The notes beneath the pieces were generated by a model. That model was not told where the DNA came from. It searched no databases and worked only from the letters and a program-made list of their open reading frames with translations. A stretch of 64,000 nt of DNA, taken from positions 78,282 through 142,281 of the forward strand of contig JAUNPV010000003.1 of the NCBI GenBank assembly GCA_030536515.1, given 5' to 3'. The position numbers were made by a program, and so were the translations under genes. This document shows positions 6,821 to 55,497 of this stretch, piece by piece. The DNA comes from Eubacteriales bacterium (GTDB lineage Bacteria; Bacillota; Clostridia; Oscillospirales; Oscillospiraceae). Within the stretch, counting starts at the first letter, position 1. Every line of letters starts with the position of its first letter.

Positions 6821-7905
6821 GGCAGCTTTTCCCCCAGTTCTTCAAAAAAATCTGCTCCCTTTTCCAGGACCCCCTCGTCAAAATCGAAGGTGTCCCCATG
6901 GAGCGCCGGGGTGTCCCCCACCCCCAGGAAGAAGAACATCCCGGGCAGATACCGCTGATACCAGGAAAAATCCTCGGCGGTCATGGCGGGCCTTTCCAAT
7001 TCCCGGAAGGCCATGACCTGCCGCACCCGGGCATAGAGTTCCGGGGGATTCATCACCGCCGGGTAGCCGCTGCTGAAGTGCAGGTCCATGGTGCAGCCGA
7101 ATTCCCGGCACACCCGGTCCCGGATGGACCGGAGGCCCTCCTGCAGACCCTCGAACACCTCGTCCTGGAAGGCCCGGAGGCTGCCCTCCAGATGGGCCTG
7201 GGCAGCCAGGGCGTTGCGGACGGTTCCGCTTTCGAACTTTCCGAATTTCAGCAGACGGAAGAATTTTTTCGGAAGCACCTGCTCCATGGTCATCGCTTCG
7301 GTGTAGAATTTCACCCCGGCGGCCAGGGCATCGATGCCCGCCTCCGCCCGGGCGATGTGGGCGGATTTCCCGAAAATATCCACGGTGACCTCGCAGGACC
7401 GGGCCATCAGCTCCCGGCACCGGCTGGCCATGACCCCGGCTTCCAGCCCCGGCCACAGGTGAAGGCCGAAAATGGCCCGGACGTTGTACTGCTCAAAAAC
7501 GCCGCTTTCGCAGATGTCCCTGGCCCCGCCGGTGGTCTCCTCGGCGCTCTGGAACACCAGCAGCACGTTGCGGGGGTAGGTTTTCTTTTCGCTGAGCCGC
7601 CGGGCCAGCTCCAAAAGGATGGCCATGTGGCCGTCGTGGCCGCAGGCGTGCATGGCCCCCGGGTGGAAAGATGCGTAGGCGGCCCCGGTCTGCTCGCAGA
7701 TGGGCAGGCCGTCGCAGTCCGCCCGGAAGGCCAGGGCCTCCGCCCGGCCAAAGTCAAACCAGGCGCACAGCCCCGTTTCCGCAGGGGAAAACACCCGGCA
7801 GTTCAGGGGTGCCAGGCTGCTTTTCAGATAGGCAAGGGTCTCGGGCAGGTCCCGGTCCAGCTCCGGGATTTGGTGAAGCGCCCGGCGGTCAGTTTTCAGC
7901 TGCAT
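6817..7905 (-). CDS. M20 amidohydrolase, probably N-acetyldiaminopimelate deacetylase (DapL/YkuR-like)
   Basis: FRADCD, MHACGHDGH, FQSAEE, AEDF motifs; start at ATG 7905 after GGAGG; divergent from dapH. Confidence 0.8.
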   Translation of the reverse strand: MQLKTDRRALHQIPELDRDLPETLAYLKSSLAPLNCRVFSPAETGLCAWFDFGRAEALAFRADCDGLPICEQTGAAYASFHPGAMHACGHDGHMAILLELARRLSEKKTYPRNVLLVFQSAEETTGGARDICESGVFEQYNVRAIFGLHLWPGLEAGVMASRCRELMARSCEVTVDIFGKSAHIARAEAGIDALAAGVKFYTEAMTMEQVLPKKFFRLLKFGKFESGTVRNALAAQAHLEGSLRAFQDEVFEGLQEGLRSIRDRVCREFGCTMDLHFSSGYPAVMNPPELYARVRQVMAFRELERPAMTAEDFSWYQRYLPGMFFFLGVGDTPALHGDTFDFDEGVLEKGADFFEELGEKLP

Positions 7906-8014
7906 CTTCTGCCCTCCTGATACAAATAATACTACATTATACGCTATTTCTGCCGGGCTGTCAATTTTCCGTCTTGAAATGGAGCGGAAAAAATGATACC
8001 ATAGCAGCAAACCG

Positions 8015-8101
8015 CAGGGCGGCCTGTGAATAATCGTATGATTGCCACCGGCAATCATTTTGATTTAGGATGTGCTGCGCACAGCACCACCTCAGGCCGC
8101 C
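8015..8101 (+). mobile_element. 62-bp cassette (8027-8088) inserted in the loop of a GGGCGGCCTG-ACCTCAGGCCGCC REP
   Basis: Removing 8027-8088 restores the REP seen intact at 41999-42024; related cassettes at 30498, 43287 and 49397. Confidence 0.7.
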
Positions 8102-8200
8102 GTCGGCGAAGCCGCATCATTTCGCCTGCCTCAATAGAGTGCAGATTTTGGCGGCCTGGGATCAGGCCGCCCTGCAATGTTGTAAAAAAAGGAGAAACCT

Positions 8201-8893
8201 ATGAACGCACAGGAAATCATTGAATACATCCGCACCTCGGAAAAAAAGACCCCGGTGAAGGTCTACGTCTGGGAAAAGACCCCGGTGGCCTTCCCCGGCT
8301 GCCGGGAGTTCCCCGCCGGACCGGGCTGCAAAATCGTCTTTGGCGACTGGGCCGACGTGGCCCCGGTGCTGGAGACGGGCGATTTTGACCACGTCGAAAT
8401 CGAAAACAGCTGCCGCAACTCCGCCATTCCCATGCTGGACATGAAAAACATCCCCGCCCGCATCGAGCCCGGCGCCATTATCCGGGAGCAGGTGGAGATT
8501 GGGAAAAACGCCGTGATTATGATGGGGGCCATTTTGAACATCGGCGCTGTGGTGGGCGAGGGCACCATGATTGACATGGGCGCCGTCCTGGGGGGCCGGG
8601 CCACCGTGGGCAAAAACTGCCACGTAGGCGCCGGAGCCGTGCTGGCCGGGGTCATCGAGCCTGCCTCCGCCACGCCGGTCATTGTGGAGGACGGGGTCCT
8701 CATCGGGGCCAACGCCGTGGTCATCGAGGGCTGCCGCATTGGCCGGGGGGCCGTGGTGGCCGCCGGAGCCGTGGTGGTGGAGGACGTTGCGCCGGACACC
8801 GTGGTAGCCGGCTGCCCCGCCCGGGTCATCAAGGTCAAGGACGAAAAAACCGCCGGAAAAACCGCCCTGGTGGATGCCCTGCGGGCATTATAA
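8201..8893 (+). CDS. dapH: 2,3,4,5-tetrahydropyridine-2,6-dicarboxylate N-acetyltransferase
   Basis: [21 protein letters not shown]-terminus, [20 protein letters not shown] and hexapeptide repeats. Confidence 0.92.
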
Positions 8894-8939
8894 GAACCAA
8901 CCATAGGTGAGGGATATCCGTTCCGAAAACCCACCAGCC

Positions 8940-9079
8940 CCCGTAGGGAACGGATTTATCCGTTCCGCAACCCACACCCCCATGCGTAGGGACAGCCCTT
9001 GCGGCTGTCCGCGGGGCGGGGCCTTTTGGGCGGTCACAATGGGGCAAACTGCCCGGACAGCCGCAAGGGCTGTCCCTAC
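8940..9079. repeat. GTAG REP cluster downstream of dapH
   Basis: GTAGGGAACGG unit (8943), GTAGGGACAGCC unit (8986) and its inverted copy ending at 9079. Confidence 0.85.
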
Positions 9080-9167
9080 GCGGGAATGATGCTGCACATT
9101 TTTTGCCCTCCGGAATACCATGGAATGAGCGGTGAATCGCTCAAGAAATTAACTCGGAGGTAATTTT

Positions 9168-9305
9168 ATGTGTAACAACAACGGTTTCTGCGGCTGCAAC
9201 ATCATCTGGATCATCATTCTGCTGCTCCTGTTCTGCGGCTGCGGCAACGGCATGGGCTTCTTTGGGGGCAACGGCTGCGACAACAACGGCTGCGGCTGCT
9301 GCTAA
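9168..9305 (+). CDS. 45-aa Cys/Gly/Asn-rich single-TM small protein (not in the ORF track)
   Basis: GGAGG RBS, ATG 9168, MCNNNGFCGCNIIWIIILLLLFCGCGNGMGFFGGNGCDNNGCGCC*, hairpin at 9312-9336. Confidence 0.75.
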   Translation: MCNNNGFCGCNIIWIIILLLLFCGCGNGMGFFGGNGCDNNGCGCC

Positions 9306-9347: not shown

Positions 9348-9797
9348 TTAATATTTCCGGCTGTAATAAATCTTAAAGCCAGCGGTGATGAGGCTGGAAA
9401 GAAAGACGCAGGCCAGGATGGTCAGGCTGACGGTGGGGTTAAAATATCCGGCGACAATGACGGCCACAATGCCCACAATCAAAATGGTCTGCAAGGCGGC
9501 CGCCTGGGCGCTGGAGATAATCTTGGCTTGGCGCTCGTCATTGGCCTTGGCGTAGAGCTTTTTCAGCCGCGTCTCACTGCGAAGGGCCAGAATGTTGATG
9601 ACGATGCCTGCAATAAACAGGGCCGTCACGCCGCCGGCAGCACCGGCAATGAAGCCGCTCCACATACTGTACCAGTGGCTGTCCTCCATGGCCGGGGCCA
9701 CCTGAATCACCACATACAGCTGCACGGCAATGAGTACCAGGGCCCCAATCAGCAGCAGGCCGGTTTCTCTTTTTAACTTTTCACGATACTTTTCCAC
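9348..9797 (-). CDS. Hypothetical four-TM membrane protein with a DER motif
   Basis: 149 aa, hydrophobic, directly downstream of an XRE regulator. Confidence 0.75.
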   Translation of the reverse strand: MEKYREKLKRETGLLLIGALVLIAVQLYVVIQVAPAMEDSHWYSMWSGFIAGAAGGVTALFIAGIVINILALRSETRLKKLYAKANDERQAKIISSAQAAALQTILIVGIVAVIVAGYFNPTVSLTILACVFLSSLITAGFKIYYSRKY

Positions 9798-9800
9798 GGT

Positions 9801-10004
9801 TTACTCCTCCAATTCAGAAAAATCAAACACTTCTTCAATGGTCAGCCCAAAATAATGGGCAATCTTCCAGGCCAGAGGCAGGGAGGCGGTGTACTTCCCC
9901 ACCTCAATGGAGGTGATGGTCTGCCGGGTGGTTCCCACCGCCTCCGCCAGCTCCTCCTGGGAGAGCTTGCGCCCCTTCCGAAGGGCACGGATGCTGTTGT
10001 TCAT
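9801..10004 (-). CDS. XRE/Cro-C1 helix-turn-helix transcriptional regulator
   Basis: LSQEELAEAVGTTRQTITSIEVGKYTASLPLAWKIA. Confidence 0.92.
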   Translation of the reverse strand: MNNSIRALRKGRKLSQEELAEAVGTTRQTITSIEVGKYTASLPLAWKIAHYFGLTIEEVFDFSELEE

Positions 10005-10088: not shown

Positions 10089-10530
10089 AAATTTTTGAAA
10101 AATGTTGAGCAGGAAAAAGCCTTCCCCCGGGGTGGTGCTCTGCGCAGCAGAGGGATGGCGTGCAGTTTAGGCAAGTACCATTTAACGGCAGTGCCAAAAA
10201 TCACCAACATATCGCCATCCCTCATCAGTCAAAAACACCCAGTCTGCGGACTGGGTGTTTTTGCCAGCTTCCCCCCGGGGGAAGCTATTTTGCGGCCCCG
10301 GGGGGAAGGCTTTGGTGGGGGGCTGCCGTTTTTTGGGCGGATTTGCTTCCTCAAGGGCGGGAAGGCACGGAACGGATAAATCCGTTCCCTACGGGATGCA
10401 AAAAAGGAGCGGCTTGCGCCGCTCCTTTCTTCTTTTTTGGCAACCGCACTGCGTTAGCGAGTGACCCACAGCGGTGTTGGTCCACCACCGAGGTTCGTAA
10501 CGAATTGTCTGCGGCGACTCGCCGCACGCC

Positions 10531-12663
10531 TTACATATCGAAGGGTTCCATGCTGAGGACGGGGTGGCCGACCTCGGTCAGGTAGTTCAGCAGGGCCTCG
10601 GGGTCCTCGGTGCAGATGGTCTCGTCGGCAATCATGTCGGTGAAGTTGTCCACGCCGTACATCTGCTTGGCAGTGGCATCCAGACGCTCACGCATCTGGT
10701 CCTTCAGCAGCTTGGGCAGCCAGACAATACGGCCGGGGCCGCCTTCGGCAGCGATGAACTTGTGAGAGGCGATGAAGTGCTTGCCGTGGCCCATGAAGCC
10801 GGGAGTCTGCACGCCGCCGCCGGTCATGGAGGCCATCTCGGAGAAGGTCATGCCCAGAGGAGTCATGCCGGCGTGCTCACGGCAGGTGATGACAACGCCC
10901 ATGGAGACAGGCTCCACGCCGCAGATACACTCGAAGCAGCCGCAGGAGGTCATGGGATCCTGGAACAGGGAGTACAGGGTCACGTGCTCCAGAGCGCCGT
11001 GGGAATACTTGGCAACGGCCTCGTCCACGGTCTCGTAACGGCCCAGCTTCTCGTCGATGCAGCCTTCCTTGACGATGGGCTGGCAGGGACCGGCGGGGTC
11101 CAGCTCCTTGGTGGCCTTGGCATCCAGCCAGGACACGGCGCCGCACAGGCCCAGACGCTCGGGGGTGACGATGCACACGTGGCTGGGGGAGAAGGCCTGG
11201 CACATGATGCAGGTGTAGTACTCGTTGACGGACTCGTCGGTCATGGAGGCCAGACGCTCGTCACGCTTGTCGAACACCTGGTTGGCGTGGGCACGCAGGA
11301 CCTTGTTCTGCTCGGCGTCCACAACAATCTTCACCTGGCACTTGTCCACAACGGCCTCGAACTCGTTCTTGACCTTGGCGTACAGCACCTCGCCCAGGTG
11401 ACGGAACTTGAAGCCGGCCTCGAAGTCGGCCTTGCTGATACGGACACGAATCATGTCACGCTGGCCGGTGTGCATCACGCCCTCGATGCAGTTAATCCAG
11501 GAGTGAATCTTACGCTCCATAACGGACTCGAAGTCGGGCTGCATGGCCTTGCCGGCCACCTCGACGGTGTAGCTGAGGGAAATCTTGGAGCCCACGGGGA
11601 TGTCGTCGATTTCGGGACCCACGACCTCAATCTTGTGGTCCTCGACCTCGCTGGCCTCCTTGGTCTGGACCAGCTCGAAGCAGTCCACACGGGAGCCGTC
11701 CACTTCCACCTGCATATCGCCACGGCGGATGATTTCGCCTTCGAAGGCGGAGGCGAAGGACACGGGAATGTCAATCTTGGTAATCTTCAGCTTGATGTTC
11801 CGGGCCTCCAGAGAGGTGGCGTTCCACTTGGAAACATCCAGCTGCTGAATCAGGGACTTGGGAACACGGAACATATTCTCCGTCTCGTTGGACACCACGG
11901 GGAAGCCCAGGGCGATGGCGCCTGCGCCGCAGGCCACAATCACGTCGTCCAGAGGCTTGAAGGCGTTGACGAAGGCGGGCACACGGTCCATGGTGTACTT
12001 CATCAGGGTGCCGGCGTCGCCGGGGGTCACGTTGCCGAAAATCAGAGCGGCACGCAGGGCGATGGACACCACGTGGATAACGGCGGTGACGTCATGGCCC
12101 AGGGGGACCACACGGACGTTGGCGCCGGTCTTGTAGTTCTTCTCAGCCAGCTGGTCGATGACGCCGCCCACCAGAGCGACAACCATGCCCTGACCCTGGT
12201 AGCTCTTAACCAGCTCCACGGCCTGGTCGGCGGACTCGGCAGCGCCCAGAATGACGGCCACGCCGGGAATATCGCCGGTGACCAGGGGCACGCCCAGGTT
12301 CCGGACGTAGGCATCGGGCACATGGCCGTAGCAGGGCTCCTCGTAGGGCGTTGCACCGTTCAGGTACTTCAGAGCCTCGATGAACTCAGCGCACAGAGCG
12401 GTGGCGACGCCGGACATGAAGGCGTCGTGCAGACGGTTTTCACGGGTCATCAGGCTCTTGACCACAGCCAGGGCGGCCTTCAGCTCACCCAGGTTGGTGA
12501 CCTTCACACCGGTGACGGCGTAGTAGCAGGGCAGGGCGTAGGCGGTGTCGGGGAAGGACACAGCCTGGCCCTCGCCGTACTGGGCAATGGCGTTATCAAT
12601 GGCAGCTTCGGTCAGGCCGTATACGGCATCGTTACCGCCAAAAACTCTTTCAAAAAGTGTCAC
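10531..12663 (-). CDS. acsB: Acetyl-CoA synthase subunit of CODH/ACS
   Basis: 710 aa; A-cluster ligand motifs CIMCQAFSPSHVC...LGLCGAVSW and TSCGCFE intact. Confidence 0.95.
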   Translation of the reverse strand: MTLFERVFGGNDAVYGLTEAAIDNAIAQYGEGQAVSFPDTAYALPCYYAVTGVKVTNLGELKAALAVVKSLMTRENRLHDAFMSGVATALCAEFIEALKYLNGATPYEEPCYGHVPDAYVRNLGVPLVTGDIPGVAVILGAAESADQAVELVKSYQGQGMVVALVGGVIDQLAEKNYKTGANVRVVPLGHDVTAVIHVVSIALRAALIFGNVTPGDAGTLMKYTMDRVPAFVNAFKPLDDVIVACGAGAIALGFPVVSNETENMFRVPKSLIQQLDVSKWNATSLEARNIKLKITKIDIPVSFASAFEGEIIRRGDMQVEVDGSRVDCFELVQTKEASEVEDHKIEVVGPEIDDIPVGSKISLSYTVEVAGKAMQPDFESVMERKIHSWINCIEGVMHTGQRDMIRVRISKADFEAGFKFRHLGEVLYAKVKNEFEAVVDKCQVKIVVDAEQNKVLRAHANQVFDKRDERLASMTDESVNEYYTCIMCQAFSPSHVCIVTPERLGLCGAVSWLDAKATKELDPAGPCQPIVKEGCIDEKLGRYETVDEAVAKYSHGALEHVTLYSLFQDPMTSCGCFECICGVEPVSMGVVITCREHAGMTPLGMTFSEMASMTGGGVQTPGFMGHGKHFIASHKFIAAEGGPGRIVWLPKLLKDQMRERLDATAKQMYGVDNFTDMIADETICTEDPEALLNYLTEVGHPVLSMEPFDM

Positions 12664-12674
12664 GGTATTTCCTC

Positions 12675-13445
12675 CTATTGTTCTTCACGATCCAGGATCG
12701 CTTTAATTTTCCGAATTTCTTCGATTGCCGTGGGGGAGCAGTCGTAGGGGGACATCCCCTGCCGGTCTGCGTCCATAATCTCCAGGTTGTAGTGCACCAT
12801 GCCAAGCAGGTCCTCGGCGGGAATGGAGCTGCGGACGAAGGCCTCGTCCTTTTCATCCCGGACCTTGTTGGCCACCACACGGACCCGCTGGACCCCCAGG
12901 TCGGCGGCCAGCCGCTTGACGTTGCGGTAGGTCTGGACGCTGCGGGCGCCGGGCTCGATGACCACGATGAACTCATCCATGTTGGCCGCCGTTCCCCGGC
13001 CCAGGTGCTCCAGGCCCGCCTCCATGTCCATAATCACCACATCATCCTTGCGGAAGGACAGGGCGGACAGGATGGACTTGAGCATCACGTGCTCGGGGCA
13101 GACGCAGCCGCTGCCGCCCACGTCCACGGTGCCCATGACCAGCAGCTTGACTCCGTTAATATCCTTGGAATATTTCTCGGGAATGTCGGCCACGTAGGGA
13201 TTGAGCTTGTAGAATCGGTTGGCGTCGGTGGCGCCGGTGCGCTCCTCCACCAGGGTGCGCATTTTGGAGATGGGGACAATCTGGTCCACCTCCTCCTGGG
13301 AAAGGCCGAGGGCCAGGCCCAGGTTGGCGTCGGGGTCCACGTCGGCGGCCAGGACGGTGCGTCCCTCGGCGGCGTAGAGCCGGGCCAGGGTGGACGACAG
13401 GGTGGTTTTACCCACGCCGCCCTTGCCGGTAATCGCTACTTTCAT
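12675..13445 (-). CDS. cooC: CODH nickel-insertion ATPase CooC/AcsF
   Basis: GKGGVGKT, DVDPD, GCVCPE, DMEAGLEHLGRGT. Confidence 0.93.
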   Translation of the reverse strand: MKVAITGKGGVGKTTLSSTLARLYAAEGRTVLAADVDPDANLGLALGLSQEEVDQIVPISKMRTLVEERTGATDANRFYKLNPYVADIPEKYSKDINGVKLLVMGTVDVGGSGCVCPEHVMLKSILSALSFRKDDVVIMDMEAGLEHLGRGTAANMDEFIVVIEPGARSVQTYRNVKRLAADLGVQRVRVVANKVRDEKDEAFVRSSIPAEDLLGMVHYNLEIMDADRQGMSPYDCSPTAIEEIRKIKAILDREEQ

Positions 13446-13507
13446 TGGAAAAGACCTCGTTTAAGTGATATATGTGCCAAATGACAGAAACGGTAAACGC
13501 TCCATAC

Positions 13508-13631
13508 TGTCATTGCGAGGAGCGAAGCGACGTGGCAATCCGTACTTTTGCAATGCTTTGCATTGCGTGGCGCTGTGCGCCACAAGAGAAGCGGATTGCC
13601 ACACCAGCTTGCCAGCTGGTTCGCAATGACA
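13508..13631. repeat. Inverted pair of TGTCATTGCG...GTGGCAATC repeats (family F) between cooS and cooC
   Basis: TGTCATTGCGAGGAGCGAAGCGACGTGGCAATC and an inverted partner ending TTCGCAATGACA; further copies at 27359, 27463 (inverted), 32298, 42063, 45723, 50374. Confidence 0.85.
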
Positions 13632-13682
13632 ATCTGTTTTTTTACTAAGTACCCTCTGTCAGAGCACTGGGGATTCTAAAAC

Positions 13683-15587
13683 TTAGATGCCCAGAGCGGC
13701 GCGCTTGGCCTCGATACGCTCGATCATCAGATCGCCCAGCTTCTCGATGTCCTGCTCCACGGTGTAGTTGGCTTCAACCCAATCCTTGACGCCGTGCTCG
13801 CCGGTCAGCCAGTCGCAGACCTCGGTGGAACCCTTGACGTAGGGGTCCACGCCCAGGAAGGTATCCAGGCCGGAGGCCACCACGTAGTTGCCGATGGAGA
13901 CAGCCTTCTCGGACATCCACTCGGGAGCGCAGCCCACAACAGGCAGCTGGGAGATGGGAATGCCGGAGTCCTTGGACAGCTCGGCGGCCAGAATCAGCAT
14001 ACGGGAGATATCCACGCAGGAGCCCATGTGCAGCACGGGAGGAATGTCAGCCAGCTCGCACACACGCTTCAGGCCGTCGCCGCAGTATTCCTTGGCCTTG
14101 ACGGGGTCCATGAGACCGGCCTTGGCGGCAGCCTGGGCGGAGCAGCCGGAGACAATCAGGATGATGTCGTTTTCCAGCAGCTTCTTCATCAGACCCACGT
14201 GAGCGGAGTCGGGACGGACCTTGGGGTTGTTGCAGCCGACCATGGCCACAGCGCCGCGGAGGACACCGGAGGTCACGCACTCCAGCAGAGGCTTGGTGGT
14301 GCCGAACTCGTCCACCTGAGAGTTGGCCACGCCGTCCAGGACCTTCACAATGGCCTCCACAGAGTAGCCCACACGGGCGTTCTGCTTCTGAGAGGGGATG
14401 TTGACCAGCTCGGGCTTGCGGTTCTTGAAGTTCTCAATGGCCATCTTGACGATTGCCTTGGCGTTCTCACCGGCGGTCTCGGCGTTGAAGCGGATGAACT
14501 CAGAGTCGGGCATCCGGGCGATGGGAGAGGTGGTGATGAACTTGGTGTGGAAGCACTTGCTGAGGGGGCCCAGTGCGGGGAAGATGCACTGCACGTCCAC
14601 AACAATGGCCTCGCAGGCGCCGGTGAGAACCACGTTCTCCTGGTTCAGGAAGTTACCGGCCATGGGGATGCCGTGACGCATGGCAACCTCGTTGGAGGTG
14701 CAGCACACGCCGGAAACGGTGATGCCCTTGGCACCCAGGCTCTTGGCGTAGGCGATCATCTCGGGGTCGTTTGCGTAGTGGACCACCATCTCGGACAGGG
14801 AGGGGTCATGGCCGTGGACGACGATGTTGACGTTGTCCTTCTCCATCACGCCGATGTTGGCGGTGGTGTCCAGGGGCTTGGGAGTGCCGAACAGGACGTC
14901 GGAGAACTCGGTGCCCATCATGGAGCCGCCCCAGCCGTCGGACAGGCCGCAGCGCAGAGCCTGGCGAATCAGAGCCTCAGGCAGAGAGGAGCAGCCCATG
15001 TGGGTCATGTGCAGAGCGGTGGCGACTTCACGGTCGATGGCCCGGGGCTCAATCTCAGCGTCATGCCACAGCTTCTGGGTGTGCTCGGGAGCACGCTTCA
15101 GGAAGCGCTGGGTGCCGAAGGGCTTGCCGTACTCCAGCAGGCCAATCTCAGCCATTTCGTGAGCCAGGTCGTAGATATCCTTGCCCTCGGTCTCCACGCC
15201 CCACTCGTGGGCAATGCGGATGAGCTTATCGGGGTCCTTGACGGTGTAGTTGCCGCCTTCCTTGGCCTGATGCAGGGTGTGCATAATCTCACGACCGTGG
15301 TCGGAGTGGGTTGCGGAACCGCCTGCGGTGAAGCGCAGGAAATTCCGGGCGACGATGCCGTGCACGTCGCAGCCGCAGATGCCGCGGGGAGATTTCTTGG
15401 TGATGCGGCAGGGTCCCATGGAGCAGATACGGCAGCAGGTGCCTGCCTCGCCGAAGCCGCAATGGGGGGTCTGGTTCTTGACCCGCTGCTGCCAGGTGTC
15501 AGCTCCAACCTTTTCTGCGTTTTCCAGCAGAGAGTTGGTGGCAGCTTCCATCTCCTCGATGGTGGTTAAAGATGCCCAATCCTTCAA
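13683..15587 (-). CDS. cooS: Anaerobic Ni,Fe carbon-monoxide dehydrogenase catalytic subunit
   Basis: CGFG..GTCCRICSMGPC..GICG (D/B clusters); C-cluster ligand motifs HGHDP, GVCCT, DVQC, GCNN, SGC, GSCVD and SEKA all present. Confidence 0.95.
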   Translation of the reverse strand: MKDWASLTTIEEMEAATNSLLENAEKVGADTWQQRVKNQTPHCGFGEAGTCCRICSMGPCRITKKSPRGICGCDVHGIVARNFLRFTAGGSATHSDHGREIMHTLHQAKEGGNYTVKDPDKLIRIAHEWGVETEGKDIYDLAHEMAEIGLLEYGKPFGTQRFLKRAPEHTQKLWHDAEIEPRAIDREVATALHMTHMGCSSLPEALIRQALRCGLSDGWGGSMMGTEFSDVLFGTPKPLDTTANIGVMEKDNVNIVVHGHDPSLSEMVVHYANDPEMIAYAKSLGAKGITVSGVCCTSNEVAMRHGIPMAGNFLNQENVVLTGACEAIVVDVQCIFPALGPLSKCFHTKFITTSPIARMPDSEFIRFNAETAGENAKAIVKMAIENFKNRKPELVNIPSQKQNARVGYSVEAIVKVLDGVANSQVDEFGTTKPLLECVTSGVLRGAVAMVGCNNPKVRPDSAHVGLMKKLLENDIILIVSGCSAQAAAKAGLMDPVKAKEYCGDGLKRVCELADIPPVLHMGSCVDISRMLILAAELSKDSGIPISQLPVVGCAPEWMSEKAVSIGNYVVASGLDTFLGVDPYVKGSTEVCDWLTGEHGVKDWVEANYTVEQDIEKLGDLMIERIEAKRAALGI

Positions 15588-15663
15588 AGTGATTTCCTCC
15601 TAATCAAATGATATTCAGACAAACCGATACGTGCACCATGTTTGTACACAATGTATCGATAAT

Positions 15664-15692
15664 ATTGTACTAATTTCGTGTAAAAATGTCAA
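15664..15692 (-). promoter_or_regulatory. SigA-type promoter of the cooS-cooC-acsB unit
   Basis: TTGACA (15687-15692) N17 TACAAT (15664-15669) on the minus strand. Confidence 0.65.
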
Positions 15693-15925: not shown

Positions 15926-15951
15926 GTAGCACTTGAACGGGAGGGATGCGT

Positions 15952-17103
15952 ATGAAATGGATATCTTTGCTGGCGGTTGGCTTGCTGCTGCCGATGCTTG
16001 CGCTGCCGGTGCAGGCGGCGGGGCTGGAGGTGGCGGGGAAAAGCGCGGTGCTGATGGACGTGGCCACCGGGACGGTGCTGTATGAATCGAACCCCCATGA
16101 GCGCCTGGCCCCCGCCAGCGTCACCAAGGTTATGACCATGCTGCTGATTATGGAGGCCGTGGATTCCGGGAAAATCGGCTGGGAGGACACGGTCACCGCC
16201 TCCGAGGCCGCCGCGGCCAAGGGCGGCAGCCAAATCTACCTCAAGGCGGGGGAGCAGATGTCCGTCCGGGATATGCTCAAATCCATCGCCGTGTCCTCGG
16301 CCAACGACTGCGCCTGCGCCATGGCCGAGCACATCGCCGGGTCCGAGGGGGCCTTTGTGGCCATGATGAACGCCCGGGCCGGGGAGCTGGGGATGCAGGA
16401 CACCACCTTCGTCAACTGCACGGGCCTGGACGATGCCCCGGAGGCAGGGGAGCACAAAACCTCCGCCCACGACATCGCCCTCATGTCCCGGCAGCTTCTC
16501 AAATACCATCCGGACATCCAAAAATTCACCACCATCTGGATGGACACCGTGCGAAACGGGGCCTTCGGCCTGTCCAACACCAACAAGCTGGTCCGGTTTT
16601 ACCAGGGGGCCACGGGGCTGAAAACCGGCTTCACCGCCGCCGCCGGGTACTGCCTGTCCGCCTCGGCGGAGCGGGAGGGACTGGGACTCATCGCCGTGGT
16701 CATGGGTGCCCCCACCTCCAAGGAGCGAAACGCCGCCTGCAAGCAGCTGCTGGACTACGGCTTTGCCAACTTCGCCCTGGTGGCCCCGGAGCTGGAGGCG
16801 CTGCCGGAGGTGGCGGTGCGGCTGGGGCAGAGGCCGACGGTGGCCCTTCAAATGGGGGACAGCGCCGGGCTGCTGGTGGACAAGGCAAAGAAAAGCACGG
16901 TCTCCACCAGCCTCACCCTGGAGCCCGCCGTCACCGCCCCGGTGGCAAAGGGCCAGCGTCTGGGCACGGTCAAAATCCTGTCCGGCCAGGAGCTGCTGGC
17001 GGAAATCCCCCTGACCGCCGCCGAGGCCGTCCCCCGCCTGACCTGGGGAGAGCTGTACCGCAGCATCCTCCGCCGGACCTGCTGCGCCAAAGCAGACAGT
17101 TGA
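15952..17103 (+). CDS. dacF: D-alanyl-D-alanine carboxypeptidase (DacF-like, peptidase S11)
   Basis: Signal peptide, ASVTK, SAND, GLKTGFT, GGSQIYLK; start at ATG 15952. Confidence 0.85.
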   Translation: MKWISLLAVGLLLPMLALPVQAAGLEVAGKSAVLMDVATGTVLYESNPHERLAPASVTKVMTMLLIMEAVDSGKIGWEDTVTASEAAAAKGGSQIYLKAGEQMSVRDMLKSIAVSSANDCACAMAEHIAGSEGAFVAMMNARAGELGMQDTTFVNCTGLDDAPEAGEHKTSAHDIALMSRQLLKYHPDIQKFTTIWMDTVRNGAFGLSNTNKLVRFYQGATGLKTGFTAAAGYCLSASAEREGLGLIAVVMGAPTSKERNAACKQLLDYGFANFALVAPELEALPEVAVRLGQRPTVALQMGDSAGLLVDKAKKSTVSTSLTLEPAVTAPVAKGQRLGTVKILSGQELLAEIPLTAAEAVPRLTWGELYRSILRRTCCAKADS

Positions 17104-54174: not shown

Positions 54175-55497
54175 ATGGCGTTTTCTTTTTTCGGCGGGGT
54201 CCATCCCAAAGAAAATAAGTGGTACGCTTGCGACAAGGAAACTGCGGTATTCCCGGAGCCTGACATCGTGGTGATTCCCATGTCCCAGCATATCGGCGCC
54301 CCCTGCAAGCCGTTGGTGAAAAAGGGCGATCTTGTGACCGTTGGCCAGAAGATCGGCGACAATCAGGGCCTTTGCGTTCCGGTCCACGCTTCCGTGTCCG
54401 GTAAGGTCAAGGCCGTGGAGTCCCGGCCCCACACCAGCGGCACCAATGTTTTGAGCGTGGTCATTGAAAATGACCACCAGCATACCCTGTGCGAGGATGT
54501 AAAGCCCCGTTCTCAGGAGGATGTGGAAAAGCTGACCAACGACGAGCTGATCGGCATCATCCGGGAGGGCGGCATCGTGGGCATGGGCGGCGCAACCTTC
54601 CCCACCCACGTCAAGCTCTCCGGCGGCGTGGGCAAGGTGGACACCGTCATTGTCAATGCCGGCGAGTGCGAGCCCTACATAACCTCCGACGACCGGCTGT
54701 GCCGGGAGCAGCCGGAGAAGCTGATTGCCGGACTGAAGATTATCATGCGCATCTTCGGCCTGAAGGAGGGCCACATCGGCATCGAGGACAACAAGCCCGA
54801 GGCCATCGCCGCCCTGCAAAGGGCCTCCCAGGGGGACGACAGCATCATCCTGGATGTGCTGCCTGCCAAGTACCCCCAGGGCGCTGAAAAGCAACTGATT
54901 TACGCCGTCACCGGCCGGGAGGTCCCCTCCGGCGGCCTGCCTGCCGCCGTTGGCTGCGCCGTGTTCAATGCGGCCACCTGCAAGGCCATTCACGACGTGG
55001 TCTACGACGGCCTGCCCCTGATTCACCGGATTGTCACCGTTTCCGGCGACATCATCATGGAGCCGAAAAACCTGCTGGTGCCCATCGGCACCTCCTTTAA
55101 CGCCCTGCTGGAGGCCTGCGGCCACTCCGAGAACCCCTACAAGGTCCTCTCCGGCGGCCCCATGATGGGCGTGGCCCAGTACGACCTCAGCGTGCCCACC
55201 ATCAAGGGTGTCAACGCCGTCACCGTTCTGGGCAGGCGCAACGACTACGCCGTGGCCGCCCCCCACTGCCTGCGCTGCGGCAAGTGCATCGACGTGTGTC
55301 CCATGAAGCTGATGCCCGTGATGATGTACAAGGCCTTCCAGAGCCAGGATGTGGAGGACATGAAGGCCAACAACATCATGGACTGCATCGAGTGCGGCAG
55401 CTGTGCTTACAACTGTCCCGCCAGCGTGCCGCTGGTGCTGGGCTTCCGGGTGGCCAAGCAGGTCATCCGCAATGCCAGCGCCAAGGCGAAGAAATAA
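54175..55497 (+). CDS. rnfC: Rnf complex subunit C
   Basis: GGVHP, GIVGMGGATFPTH, NAGECEPY, YPQGAEK, two CxxCxxCxxxCP. Confidence 0.96.
   Translation: MAFSFFGGVHPKENKWYACDKETAVFPEPDIVVIPMSQHIGAPCKPLVKKGDLVTVGQKIGDNQGLCVPVHASVSGKVKAVESRPHTSGTNVLSVVIENDHQHTLCEDVKPRSQEDVEKLTNDELIGIIREGGIVGMGGATFPTHVKLSGGVGKVDTVIVNAGECEPYITSDDRLCREQPEKLIAGLKIIMRIFGLKEGHIGIEDNKPEAIAALQRASQGDDSIILDVLPAKYPQGAEKQLIYAVTGREVPSGGLPAAVGCAVFNAATCKAIHDVVYDGLPLIHRIVTVSGDIIMEPKNLLVPIGTSFNALLEACGHSENPYKVLSGGPMMGVAQYDLSVPTIKGVNAVTVLGRRNDYAVAAPHCLRCGKCIDVCPMKLMPVMMYKAFQSQDVEDMKANNIMDCIECGSCAYNCPASVPLVLGFRVAKQVIRNASAKAKK

Follow-up and report, generated by a model that had tools for sequence, protein, structure and literature searches.

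Why would an operon of cooS, cooC and acsB lie apart from the genes that should supply its methyl group? The question is raised by a minus-strand operon at positions 10531–15587 of the window (the whole 64,000-nucleotide stretch of DNA that was analysed). Its promoter is close to consensus, a terminator follows it and the ligands of every metal cluster are present, and neither acsC, acsD and acsE nor the methyl-branch genes adjoin the trio. The genome belongs to Faecousia (Oscillospiraceae), an uncultured gut bacterium, and is 98% complete in 48 contigs. Our analysis suggests that the operon forms the carbonyl-branch module in a Wood-Ljungdahl pathway distributed over three loci and complete except for formate dehydrogenase (Fdh). 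We assign this reading a probability of about 85%.

Genes and signals of the operon

The features of the region are listed in Table 1. CooS scored 611.7 bits as a whole protein against TIGR01702 (cut-off 478) and 563.9 bits against Pfam Prismane. It starts at a TTG codon (15587) with an AGGAGG Shine-Dalgarno sequence ahead of it. The D/B-cluster cysteine block occupies residues 43–73, and the C-cluster motifs are HGH (258–260), CCT (295–297), VQC (332–334), GCNN (451–454), SGC (480–482) and GSCVD (522–526). The closest PDB entry was the CODH of the Clostridium autoethanogenum CODH/ACS (6ytt_B/9fzy_B, 730 bits), with which the B-, C- and D-cluster ligands are aligned. Genome-wide, CooS is the sole CODH. 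Another Prismane match, on contig C11, was considered as a second CODH and rejected, as it is a hybrid-cluster protein/hydroxylamine reductase.

Table 1. Features of the cooS-cooC-acsB region, in window coordinates.
Feature	Position	Strand	Details
XRE HTH gene	9801–10004	−	Operon flank
Intrinsic terminator 3′ of acsB	10397–10437	−	GGAGCGGC-GCAA-GCCGCTCC then TTTTTT; GC-rich hairpin and T-run
acsB (AcsB1), acetyl-CoA synthase with A-cluster, 710 aa	10531–12663	−	NF040764 and three Pfam domains
cooC, CooC-type Ni-insertion P-loop ATPase, 256 aa	12675–13445	−	Pfam CbiA/AAA_31
cooS-cooC spacer, 237 nt	13446–13682		TGTC-tagged palindromic REP-like element, read from sequence
cooS/acsA, Ni-CODH catalytic subunit, 634 aa	13683–15587	−	TIGR01702 and Pfam Prismane
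Sigma-70-type operon promoter	15664–15692	−	TTGACA-17 nt-TACAAT; 11/12 consensus matches; about 77 nt upstream of the cooS start
DacF-type S11 carboxypeptidase gene	15946–17103	+	Operon flank

CooC has a deviant Walker A P-loop (GKGGVGKT, residues 7–14) and a metal-binding CxC motif (CVC, 114–116). No curated NCBIfam model was passed by this protein, which gave general MinD/ParA-type matches only. It shares 54–91% identity with its counterpart between cooS and acsB in other Clostridia, among them the genome that matches Acetobacterium woodii by its acsB1 coordinates, and this position of cooC is kept in 79 of 80 relatives. Because the cooS-cooC spacer measures only about 6–130 nt in three relatives, the REP-like element represents an insertion within the operon; it could affect co-transcription.

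AcsB1 scored 1015 bits against NF040764 (cut-off 800) and contains all three domains, namely CODH_A_N (PF18537; CODH-docking), CdhC (PF03598) and ACS_CODH_B_C (PF19436; C-terminal A-cluster). Its A-cluster reads C485-x2-C488-x8-C497-x9-C507 with C574-G-C576 as the CGC Ni site. AcsB1 matched PDB 6ytt_A with 875 bits, and the ligands are aligned with 6ytt_A and 1mjg_M. A genome-wide search showed that it is the only full-length ACS gene, with one further remnant of 291 aa.

A preliminary description of this DNA had proposed three genes with intact C-, B-, D- and A-cluster ligand motifs, a SigA-type promoter of their own and unrelated flanks (an XRE module and dacF). The motif positions and the PDB alignments confirm the first of these points, and the promoter and both flanking genes were found as described. 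Five promoter-like sites were observed in the 6.2-kb region, against 1.5 expected from shuffles. The hairpin of the acsB terminator is symmetric, so that termination in both directions is possible. DacF, DapH or M20 flanks were common to only 4 of 80 related loci; thus, the flanks are uninformative on function.

Partner genes on other contigs and their conservation

The operon lies on contig C27, and we found the missing partners on other contigs. On C17 the gene order is metF-acsF-acsD-acsC::acsE-(acsB remnant)-acsV, with AcsD (NF040759, 460 bits), AcsV (NF040756, 904 bits) and MetF (Pfam MTHFR, 213 bits) all recognised. The acsC::acsE gene is a single ORF of 758 aa that matches both NF003195 (513 bits) and NF040758 (469 bits). 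Contig C30 carries fhs-fchA-folD (fhs, 943 bits). Hence the CoFeSP subunits AcsC and AcsD, the methyltransferase AcsE, the reactivase AcsV and the methyl branch (Fhs, FchA/FolD and MetF) are all encoded. The genome also holds two rnfC genes, two [FeFe]-hydrogenase genes (one beside a NuoF-like gene), PFOR and acetate kinase, and so has genes for energy conservation, electron input and acetate formation. Contig C13 encodes an MFS transporter, a corrinoid protein, a methyl-THF:corrinoid methyltransferase, a RamA-like activase, a DUF2284 protein and a URO-D-family methyltransferase.

The genome search that had been proposed for acsC, acsD, acsE, fhs, folD, metF, metV, fdh and hydrogenases therefore returned all of them except metV (no PF12225 match) and fdh. 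No match to TIGR01591 or PF00384 and no molybdopterin enzyme was detected in this 98% complete genome. Pyruvate formate-lyase (PFL), a FocA-type formate channel and the glycine-cleavage T protein (GcvT) were likewise not found in the genome. The earlier view of a unit without CoFeSP, methyltransferase and methyl-branch genes is thus right for the locus and wrong for the organism. Its suggestion of an under-recognised gut acetogen with a split cluster is correct as to the split, but this group has already been recognised (PMC11338639; bioRxiv 10.1101/2024.08.15.608071).

The layout is conserved. As far as the contigs reach, the trio is kept in all 80 related loci, and acsD, acsC::acsE, acsV and metF were absent within 10 kb of it in each of these loci. 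Among 101 sampled Faecousia genomes, AcsB was detected in 93, AcsE in 83 and Fdh in only 8; in the high-quality genomes of the genus AcsE was present in 22 of 22. Both modules are joined in one cluster in other genera (G488, G539, G390 and family f89), which indicates that the Faecousia layout is a split of a conventional cluster.

The fusion of AcsE to the C-terminus of AcsC occurs in this genome, and at least six further genera of Oscillospiraceae share it. In a previous survey, acsE was "not detected" in 78% of the Oscillospirales genomes (PMC11338639), and the fusion probably accounts for these calls. AcsE is then not missing in these bacteria but fused to AcsC, where gene-level KO calls overlook it, and an apparent gap in the published Oscillospirales pathway reconstruction is removed. 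Word searches of the literature for an AcsC-AcsE fusion returned nothing relevant, which does not prove that no such paper exists.

Most Faecousia have two acsB genes, one after cooS-cooC and one after acsC::acsE. In the genome studied here the second copy (AcsB2, on C17) is a fast-evolving N-terminal domain of 291 aa on a long branch. A tblastn search of C17 with an intact AcsB2 matched nothing beyond residues 1–292, and the space where the remainder would sit is occupied by REP-like repeats, a small HTH gene and a small ORF. The ORF is more likely a decaying remnant than a conserved new gene. A conserved family of stand-alone AcsB N-domain proteins was considered and rejected: a search of proteins of 160–509 aa returned the same ORF, one 67% relative and otherwise mostly fragment-like AcsB pieces from short contigs of 1–5 kb. 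In a quick AcsB tree, the CODH-linked and CoFeSP-linked clades were separate in Oscillospiraceae.

Proposed role of the operon

Based on these genes, the three loci may cooperate as follows. CooS, loaded with nickel by CooC, would reduce CO2 to CO with reduced ferredoxin, and the CODH/ACS tunnel would conduct the CO to the AcsB A-cluster. There AcsB would join CO, CoA and a methyl group brought by the CoFeSP. The methyl-delivering protein would consist of AcsD and the AcsC::AcsE fusion, which carries its own methyl-THF methyltransferase; both are encoded on C17. Also encoded there are MetF, the reactivase AcsV and, as a second maturase, AcsF, and C30 carries Fhs-FchA-FolD. As encoded, a purely reductive route from CO2 to acetate is not possible. 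Because Fdh, PFL, FocA and GcvT are absent, the methyl branch must be fed by formate that is imported or obtained by cross-feeding, or by methyl-THF of another origin. The flux is most likely reductive, with the pathway acting as an acetate-making electron sink.

The source of the methyl groups leaves room for another explanation. The corrinoid methyltransferase system of C13 may make methyl-THF from a methylated dietary compound, whose methyl groups CODH/ACS would condense with CO2-derived CO, and part of the methyls would be oxidised only to formate. The C13 gene set itself, the lack of Fdh, PFL, FocA and GcvT, and the presence of the reversible enzymes Fhs, FchA, FolD and MetF are in accord with such a route. 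However, C13-like methyl-THF methyltransferase genes were found in only about 17 of the 101 Faecousia genomes, whereas nearly the whole genus has the pathway; thus, this route cannot be the general solution, and we consider it rather unlikely as the main methyl source here. As it would still use AcsE and CoFeSP, it is a variant of the three-locus pathway and not a stand-alone CODH/ACS. A broader proposal, which we put forward only tentatively, is that Faecousia lacking Fdh, PFL, FocA and Gcv do not convert CO2 to acetate but scavenge methyl groups or formate as an electron sink. At the core of this sink would be an AcsC::AcsE fusion specific to the clade, in which the methyl-THF methyltransferase is tethered to the B12 domain, as it is in MetH. 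Cross-fed formate, or a corrinoid demethylase system like that of C13, would supply the methyl group, and the CODH-docking N-domain of the 291-aa AcsB2 might still bind CooS and modulate CODH/ACS.

The preliminary description had named another methyl donor or acetyl-CoA cleavage as an alternative, and with acsD, acsC::acsE and acsV in the same genome neither is needed. Were the enzyme to run mainly in reverse, acetyl-CoA would be cleaved, its carbonyl would become CO2, and its methyl would leave through MetF, FolD and Fhs as formate, to be excreted or passed to a partner. Every step is reversible, the route would naturally end in formate where Fdh is lacking, Fhs running backward yields ATP, and the hydrogenases and Rnf could dispose of the electrons. 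However, thermodynamics disfavour this direction unless H2 and formate are kept very low by a partner, and PFOR with acetate kinase is typical of an acetate producer. Moreover, the abundance and pathway expression of rumen Faecousia rise as H2 accumulates, which is reductive behaviour (bioRxiv 10.1101/2024.08.15.608071). Reversal as the main mode is therefore improbable. Less probable still is a CODH/ACS that truly stands alone, with a donor other than CoFeSP for its methyl group, or with no donor. This idea draws on local gene order only, namely on the lack of CoFeSP and methyltransferase genes within 10 kb of the trio here and in the 80 relatives, and it is already contradicted by the genome content. 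The acsD, acsC::acsE and acsV genes are intact, the high-quality genomes of the genus all have AcsE, and CoFeSP genes are contiguous with cooS-cooC-acsB in other genera. In addition, AcsB1 is the only full-length ACS; if it did not work with CoFeSP, the CoFeSP genes would be left without a partner. With acsD, acsC::acsE, metF and the further genes on C17 and C30, the stand-alone reading fails the test that the preliminary description had set for it, and the operon is part of an ordinary pathway to acetate with a split layout.

In human and animal guts, Faecousia ranks among the most prevalent carriers of CODH/ACS, and as a candidate sink for hydrogen or formate it would compete with methanogens. 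Correct annotation of its pathway is thus of practical value.

Comparison with known systems

The closest described case is the human-gut Oscillospirales context of the "WLP-type". Its authors reported cooS-cooC-acsB apart from acsCDE, named Faecousia as a CODH/ACS carrier with an Fdh-less pathway, and detected transcripts of the pathway genes in gut metatranscriptomes (Microb Genom 2024, PMC11338639). Faecousia has also been named a putative rumen acetogen, and rumen Ca. Faecousia up-regulates the pathway under methanogen inhibition (bioRxiv 10.1101/2024.08.15.608071). Our genome agrees with the 2024 report in the genus, the three-gene order, the location of acsCDE outside the cooS neighbourhood and the lack of Fdh, Pfl and FdhC. 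Both the split layout and the absence of Fdh are therefore published, and the operon itself is nothing new. However, acsE was mostly not detected in that study, whereas here AcsE is the C-terminal half of the 758-aa AcsC::AcsE. Neither a second acsB nor the loss of that copy is mentioned in that report; here the second acsB is reduced.

Among solved structures, the C. autoethanogenum CODH/ACS (PDB 6ytt; CODH/ACS-CoFeSP, 9fzy-9g03) is the best relative of CooS, of AcsB and of the AcsC part of the fusion (468 bits). Its CODH is likewise of the short 630-aa type, and all cluster ligands align. However, C. autoethanogenum has one acs cluster with separate AcsC and AcsE, in contrast to the three loci and the fusion found here.

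Cluster III of A. woodii is cooC1-acsV-orf1-orf2-acsD-acsC-acsE-acsA-cooC2-acsB1 (PMC3315566, PMC6925170). Its 3′ end, acsA-cooC2-acsB1, has the same order as our operon, and the preliminary description was correct in placing acsA-cooC-acsB at the end of the Acetobacterium-type cluster (PMC6925170). The genome that matches A. woodii by acsB coordinates also has a second, solitary acsB. However, the A. woodii trio is contiguous with acsCDE, and A. woodii has HDCR/Fdh and RnfC2-MetVF; none of these was found here. Gut Lachnospiraceae acetogens (isolate TWA4, Blautia hydrogenotrophica and Ruminococcus obeum; PMC4275979) have two-acsB core clusters, and most Faecousia likewise have two acsB paralogues per genome, whereas in this genome only the N-terminal domain of the second copy is left, 291 aa in length and on a long branch.

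The three-gene CODH/ACS operon

Three open reading frames, cooS, cooC and acsB, occupy the minus strand of the window from 10531 to 15587. The nearest solved structures are those of the Clostridium autoethanogenum CODH/ACS (6ytt/9fzy), with scores of 730 bits for CooS and 875 bits for AcsB. In the profile search, AcsB comprised a CODH-docking N domain, CdhC and a C-terminal A-cluster domain, and its A-cluster ligands are C485/C488/C497/C507 and C574-G-C576. CooS has the D/B-cluster cysteine block at residues 43-73 and the His/Cys motifs of the C-cluster (HGH 258, CCT 295, VQC 332, GCNN 451, SGC 480, GSCVD 522). The ATPase carries a GKGGVGKT P-loop and CxC at 114-116, as CooC should. Every metal ligand listed in a preliminary description was thus found in the three sequences.

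The TTG start of cooS has AGGAGG upstream, and the trio is flanked by an XRE HTH gene and a DacF-type carboxypeptidase. The three-gene operon with its ligands, promoter and flanks, as first described, was borne out in full detail. The gap between cooS and cooC, filled by an inserted REP-like element, measures 237 nt in the window versus about 6-130 nt in relatives.

Features of the operon and of related genes in the genome (contig named where outside the window)
Feature	Position	Strand	Remarks
Promoter	15692-15664	minus	TTGACA-17-TACAAT, 11/12 match
cooS	13683-15587	minus	634 aa; anaerobic Ni-CODH catalytic subunit; TIGR01702 611.7 bits, cut-off 478; Pfam Prismane
REP-like element	13446-13682		cooS-cooC gap, inside operon; TGTC-tagged, palindromic, ~237 nt
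cooC	12675-13445	minus	256 aa; MinD/ParA-class P-loop ATPase
acsB	10531-12663	minus	710 aa; bacterial acetyl-CoA synthase; NF040764 1015 bits, cut-off 800
Hairpin and T-run	~10437-10397		3' of acsB; GC-rich
rnfC copy 1	~54181-55473 (C27:132462-133754)		full-length
rnfC copy 2	C31:3691-4974		full-length
metF	C17 3894-4823
acsF	C17 4976-5773		second CooC-type maturase
acsD	C17 5887-6915		NF040759, 460 bits
acsC::acsE	C17 (locus L003) 6936-9212		758 aa; first 441 residues AcsC (NF003195, 513 bits), last 259 AcsE (NF040758, 469 bits)
RAYT-like ORF	C17 (locus L003) ~9404-9799		REP-associated tyrosine transposase; NF047646 58 bits, below cut-off 80
acsB N-domain ORF	C17 (locus L003) 10441-11316		291 aa; AcsB N-terminal domain match only
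acsV/RACo	C17 12224-14152		904 bits
Corrinoid methyltransferase system	C13:36913-44137 (locus L177:4914-12138)

Partner genes and the split cluster

The trio had been regarded as a stand-alone unit, either of an under-recognised gut acetogen with a split cluster or of CODH/ACS serving another methyl donor or acetyl-CoA cleavage. The window corresponds to C27:78282-142281 of the genome assembly (2.63 Mb, 48 contigs, 98% complete), which we searched for acsC/acsD/acsE, fhs, folD, metF, fdh and hydrogenases, as the preliminary description had proposed. The first six were all found on C17 and C30. Contig C17 carries, co-oriented, metF, acsF, acsD, acsC::acsE (a fused AcsC and AcsE ORF), an acsB N-domain ORF and acsV; fhs-fchA-folD is located on C30. 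With these partner genes the split cluster stands and the stand-alone unit falls. As for energy and formate genes, two [FeFe]-hydrogenases were present, one adjoining a NuoF-like gene, and neither fdh nor any molybdopterin enzyme was detected in this assembly. PFOR and acetate kinase genes were also found. Because the other Prismane-family gene of the genome is a hybrid-cluster protein, the window cooS is its sole CODH. With two rnfC genes, both full-length (515 and 522 bits), this 2.6-Mb genome possibly encodes two Rnf complexes.

Two modules, cooS-cooC-acsB and acsF-acsD-acsC-acsE-acsB-acsV, recur across Oscillospiraceae and other Clostridia. They are contiguous in some genera (G488, G390, G539 and family f89), in the order cooS-cooC-acsB-acsD-acsC-acsE-acsB-acsV in G488 and cooS-cooC-acsB-acsF-acsD-...-acsE-acsB-acsV in f89. 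Since the modules lie on separate contigs in Faecousia, the genus of this genome, and are contiguous in other genera, the Faecousia layout is, judged from gene order, a conventional cluster that has been split.

In the tree, the CODH-linked AcsB of Faecousia groups with that of f52, a different family within the class (L164 of genome G842, L166 and L176 of G794; 74% identity, support 98-99), and not with that of other Oscillospiraceae genera, to which it is only 62-70% identical. This grouping hints that the cooS-cooC-acsB module has been exchanged horizontally. Genome G794 has two acsB genes in tandem.

The AcsC::AcsE fusion and the second acsB

Along its full length, the 758-aa ORF matches first the large subunit of CoFeSP (corrinoid iron-sulfur protein) and then the methyltransferase MeTr: residues 1-440 align with 9fzy_F and residues 503-756 with 1f6y/2e7f. 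The linker of about 50 residues is in-frame, Ala/Lys/Glu-rich and without stop codons. All five Faecousia loci inspected carry the fusion, as do at least six other genera of Oscillospiraceae; in seven further genera and in families f66, f89 and f93, acsC and acsE are unfused, with a stop codon and then a short intergenic spacer between them. A gut CODH survey reported that acsE "was not detected in 78% of the Oscillospirales genomes" (PMC11338639). It is likely that the fusion explains these missing calls, because a gene called as acsC conceals the AcsE domain; the fusion would then repair a published gap in the Oscillospirales pathway. Word searches of the literature found no paper describing it.

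CODH-linked and CoFeSP-linked acsB form separate, well-supported clades in the Oscillospiraceae tree and are about 59% identical. Two copies occur in 16/22 high-quality Faecousia genomes, in gut Lachnospiraceae acetogens (PMC4275979), and in a genome that agrees with Acetobacterium woodii in its acsB coordinates. In the present genome the CoFeSP-linked copy is reduced to its first 291 codons, the CODH-docking N-terminal domain, with the frame still open; nothing of the other two domains is left. At 0.62 substitutions per site, its end branch is five times the median of 0.12. In a search of 5.8 billion proteins, its best relative reached only 67% identity, against 90-92% for many relatives of the adjacent AcsC::AcsE. 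The ORF is therefore probably a decaying remnant. If the copy is a remnant, the window acsB would be the only functional ACS gene and would have to work with the C17 corrinoid protein. The RAYT-like ORF sits between acsC::acsE and the remnant and adjoins GTAGGG-type hairpins.

Methyl supply and the published record

From established CODH/ACS biochemistry and the solved C. autoethanogenum complexes, we infer the following mechanism for this organism. The CooS C-cluster would reduce CO2 to CO with electrons from ferredoxin, itself reduced by PFOR or a bifurcating hydrogenase, and a tunnel within the protein would carry the CO to the Ni-Ni-[4Fe4S] A-cluster of AcsB. In the fusion, the AcsE part would transfer the methyl group of methyl-THF to cobalt in the B12 domain of AcsC, and from there it would reach the A-cluster; the acetyl-CoA released would yield acetate, with a gain of ATP. 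CooC and AcsF would load nickel, and AcsV would re-reduce oxidised corrinoid.

Pyruvate formate-lyase, the FocA/FdhC channel, MetV and glycine-cleavage T protein were not found in the 98% complete genome. Because Fdh, Pfl, FocA and Gcv are all missing, no recognisable gene encodes a C1 source for Fhs. The simplest idea, which is also the literature's proposal, is that cross-fed formate enters via a putative carrier. A formate-independent source could be the C13 system, which comprises an MFS transporter, an MtgC/MtbC-like corrinoid protein, a methyl-THF:corrinoid methyltransferase (NF005719, 344 bits), a LysR regulator, a RamA-like reductive activase, a DUF2284 protein and a URO-D-family methyltransferase, and could feed methyl-THF directly; however, comparable genes are limited to about 17 of the 101 Faecousia genomes sampled. 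Running the pathway in reverse fits less well, both with the gene content and with rumen data, in which Ca. Faecousia is the main putative hydrogenotrophic acetogen and is stimulated upon methanogen inhibition (bioRxiv 10.1101/2024.08.15.608071). The rumen Ca. Faecousia of that study possess HDCR.

Relatives of the window AcsB with 78-91% identity come from MAGs labelled Candidatus Faecousia, Oscillospiraceae or CAG-110 that were recovered from the guts of humans, chickens, rabbits and ruminants. Among 101 sampled Faecousia genomes, AcsB was detected in 93, AcsE in 83 (22/22 of the high-quality genomes) and Fdh in only 8. Within the reach of their contigs, all 80 related loci keep the trio, and acsD, acsC::acsE, acsV and metF are absent near it in every one (up to 10 kb flank each). 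The outer flanks vary, and the DacF, DapH or M20 neighbours of the window recur in only 4/80 loci.

The 2024 survey (PMC11338639) identified Faecousia as the main Oscillospirales CODH carrier (282/446 genomes), so that "under-recognised" has been overtaken by the published record. It reported that the consecutive cooS-cooC-acsB order is retained in all genera, that acsCDE lies outside the cooS neighbourhood in 7/8 Oscillospirales genera, that the pathway in the gut as a rule lacks Fdh, and that fdh, pfl and fdhC homologues are missing from Faecousia. Our tallies are consistent with these statements. Because the survey covers this arrangement and our tallies agree, the window trio, though correctly described, is not new: it is a known, genus-wide arrangement.
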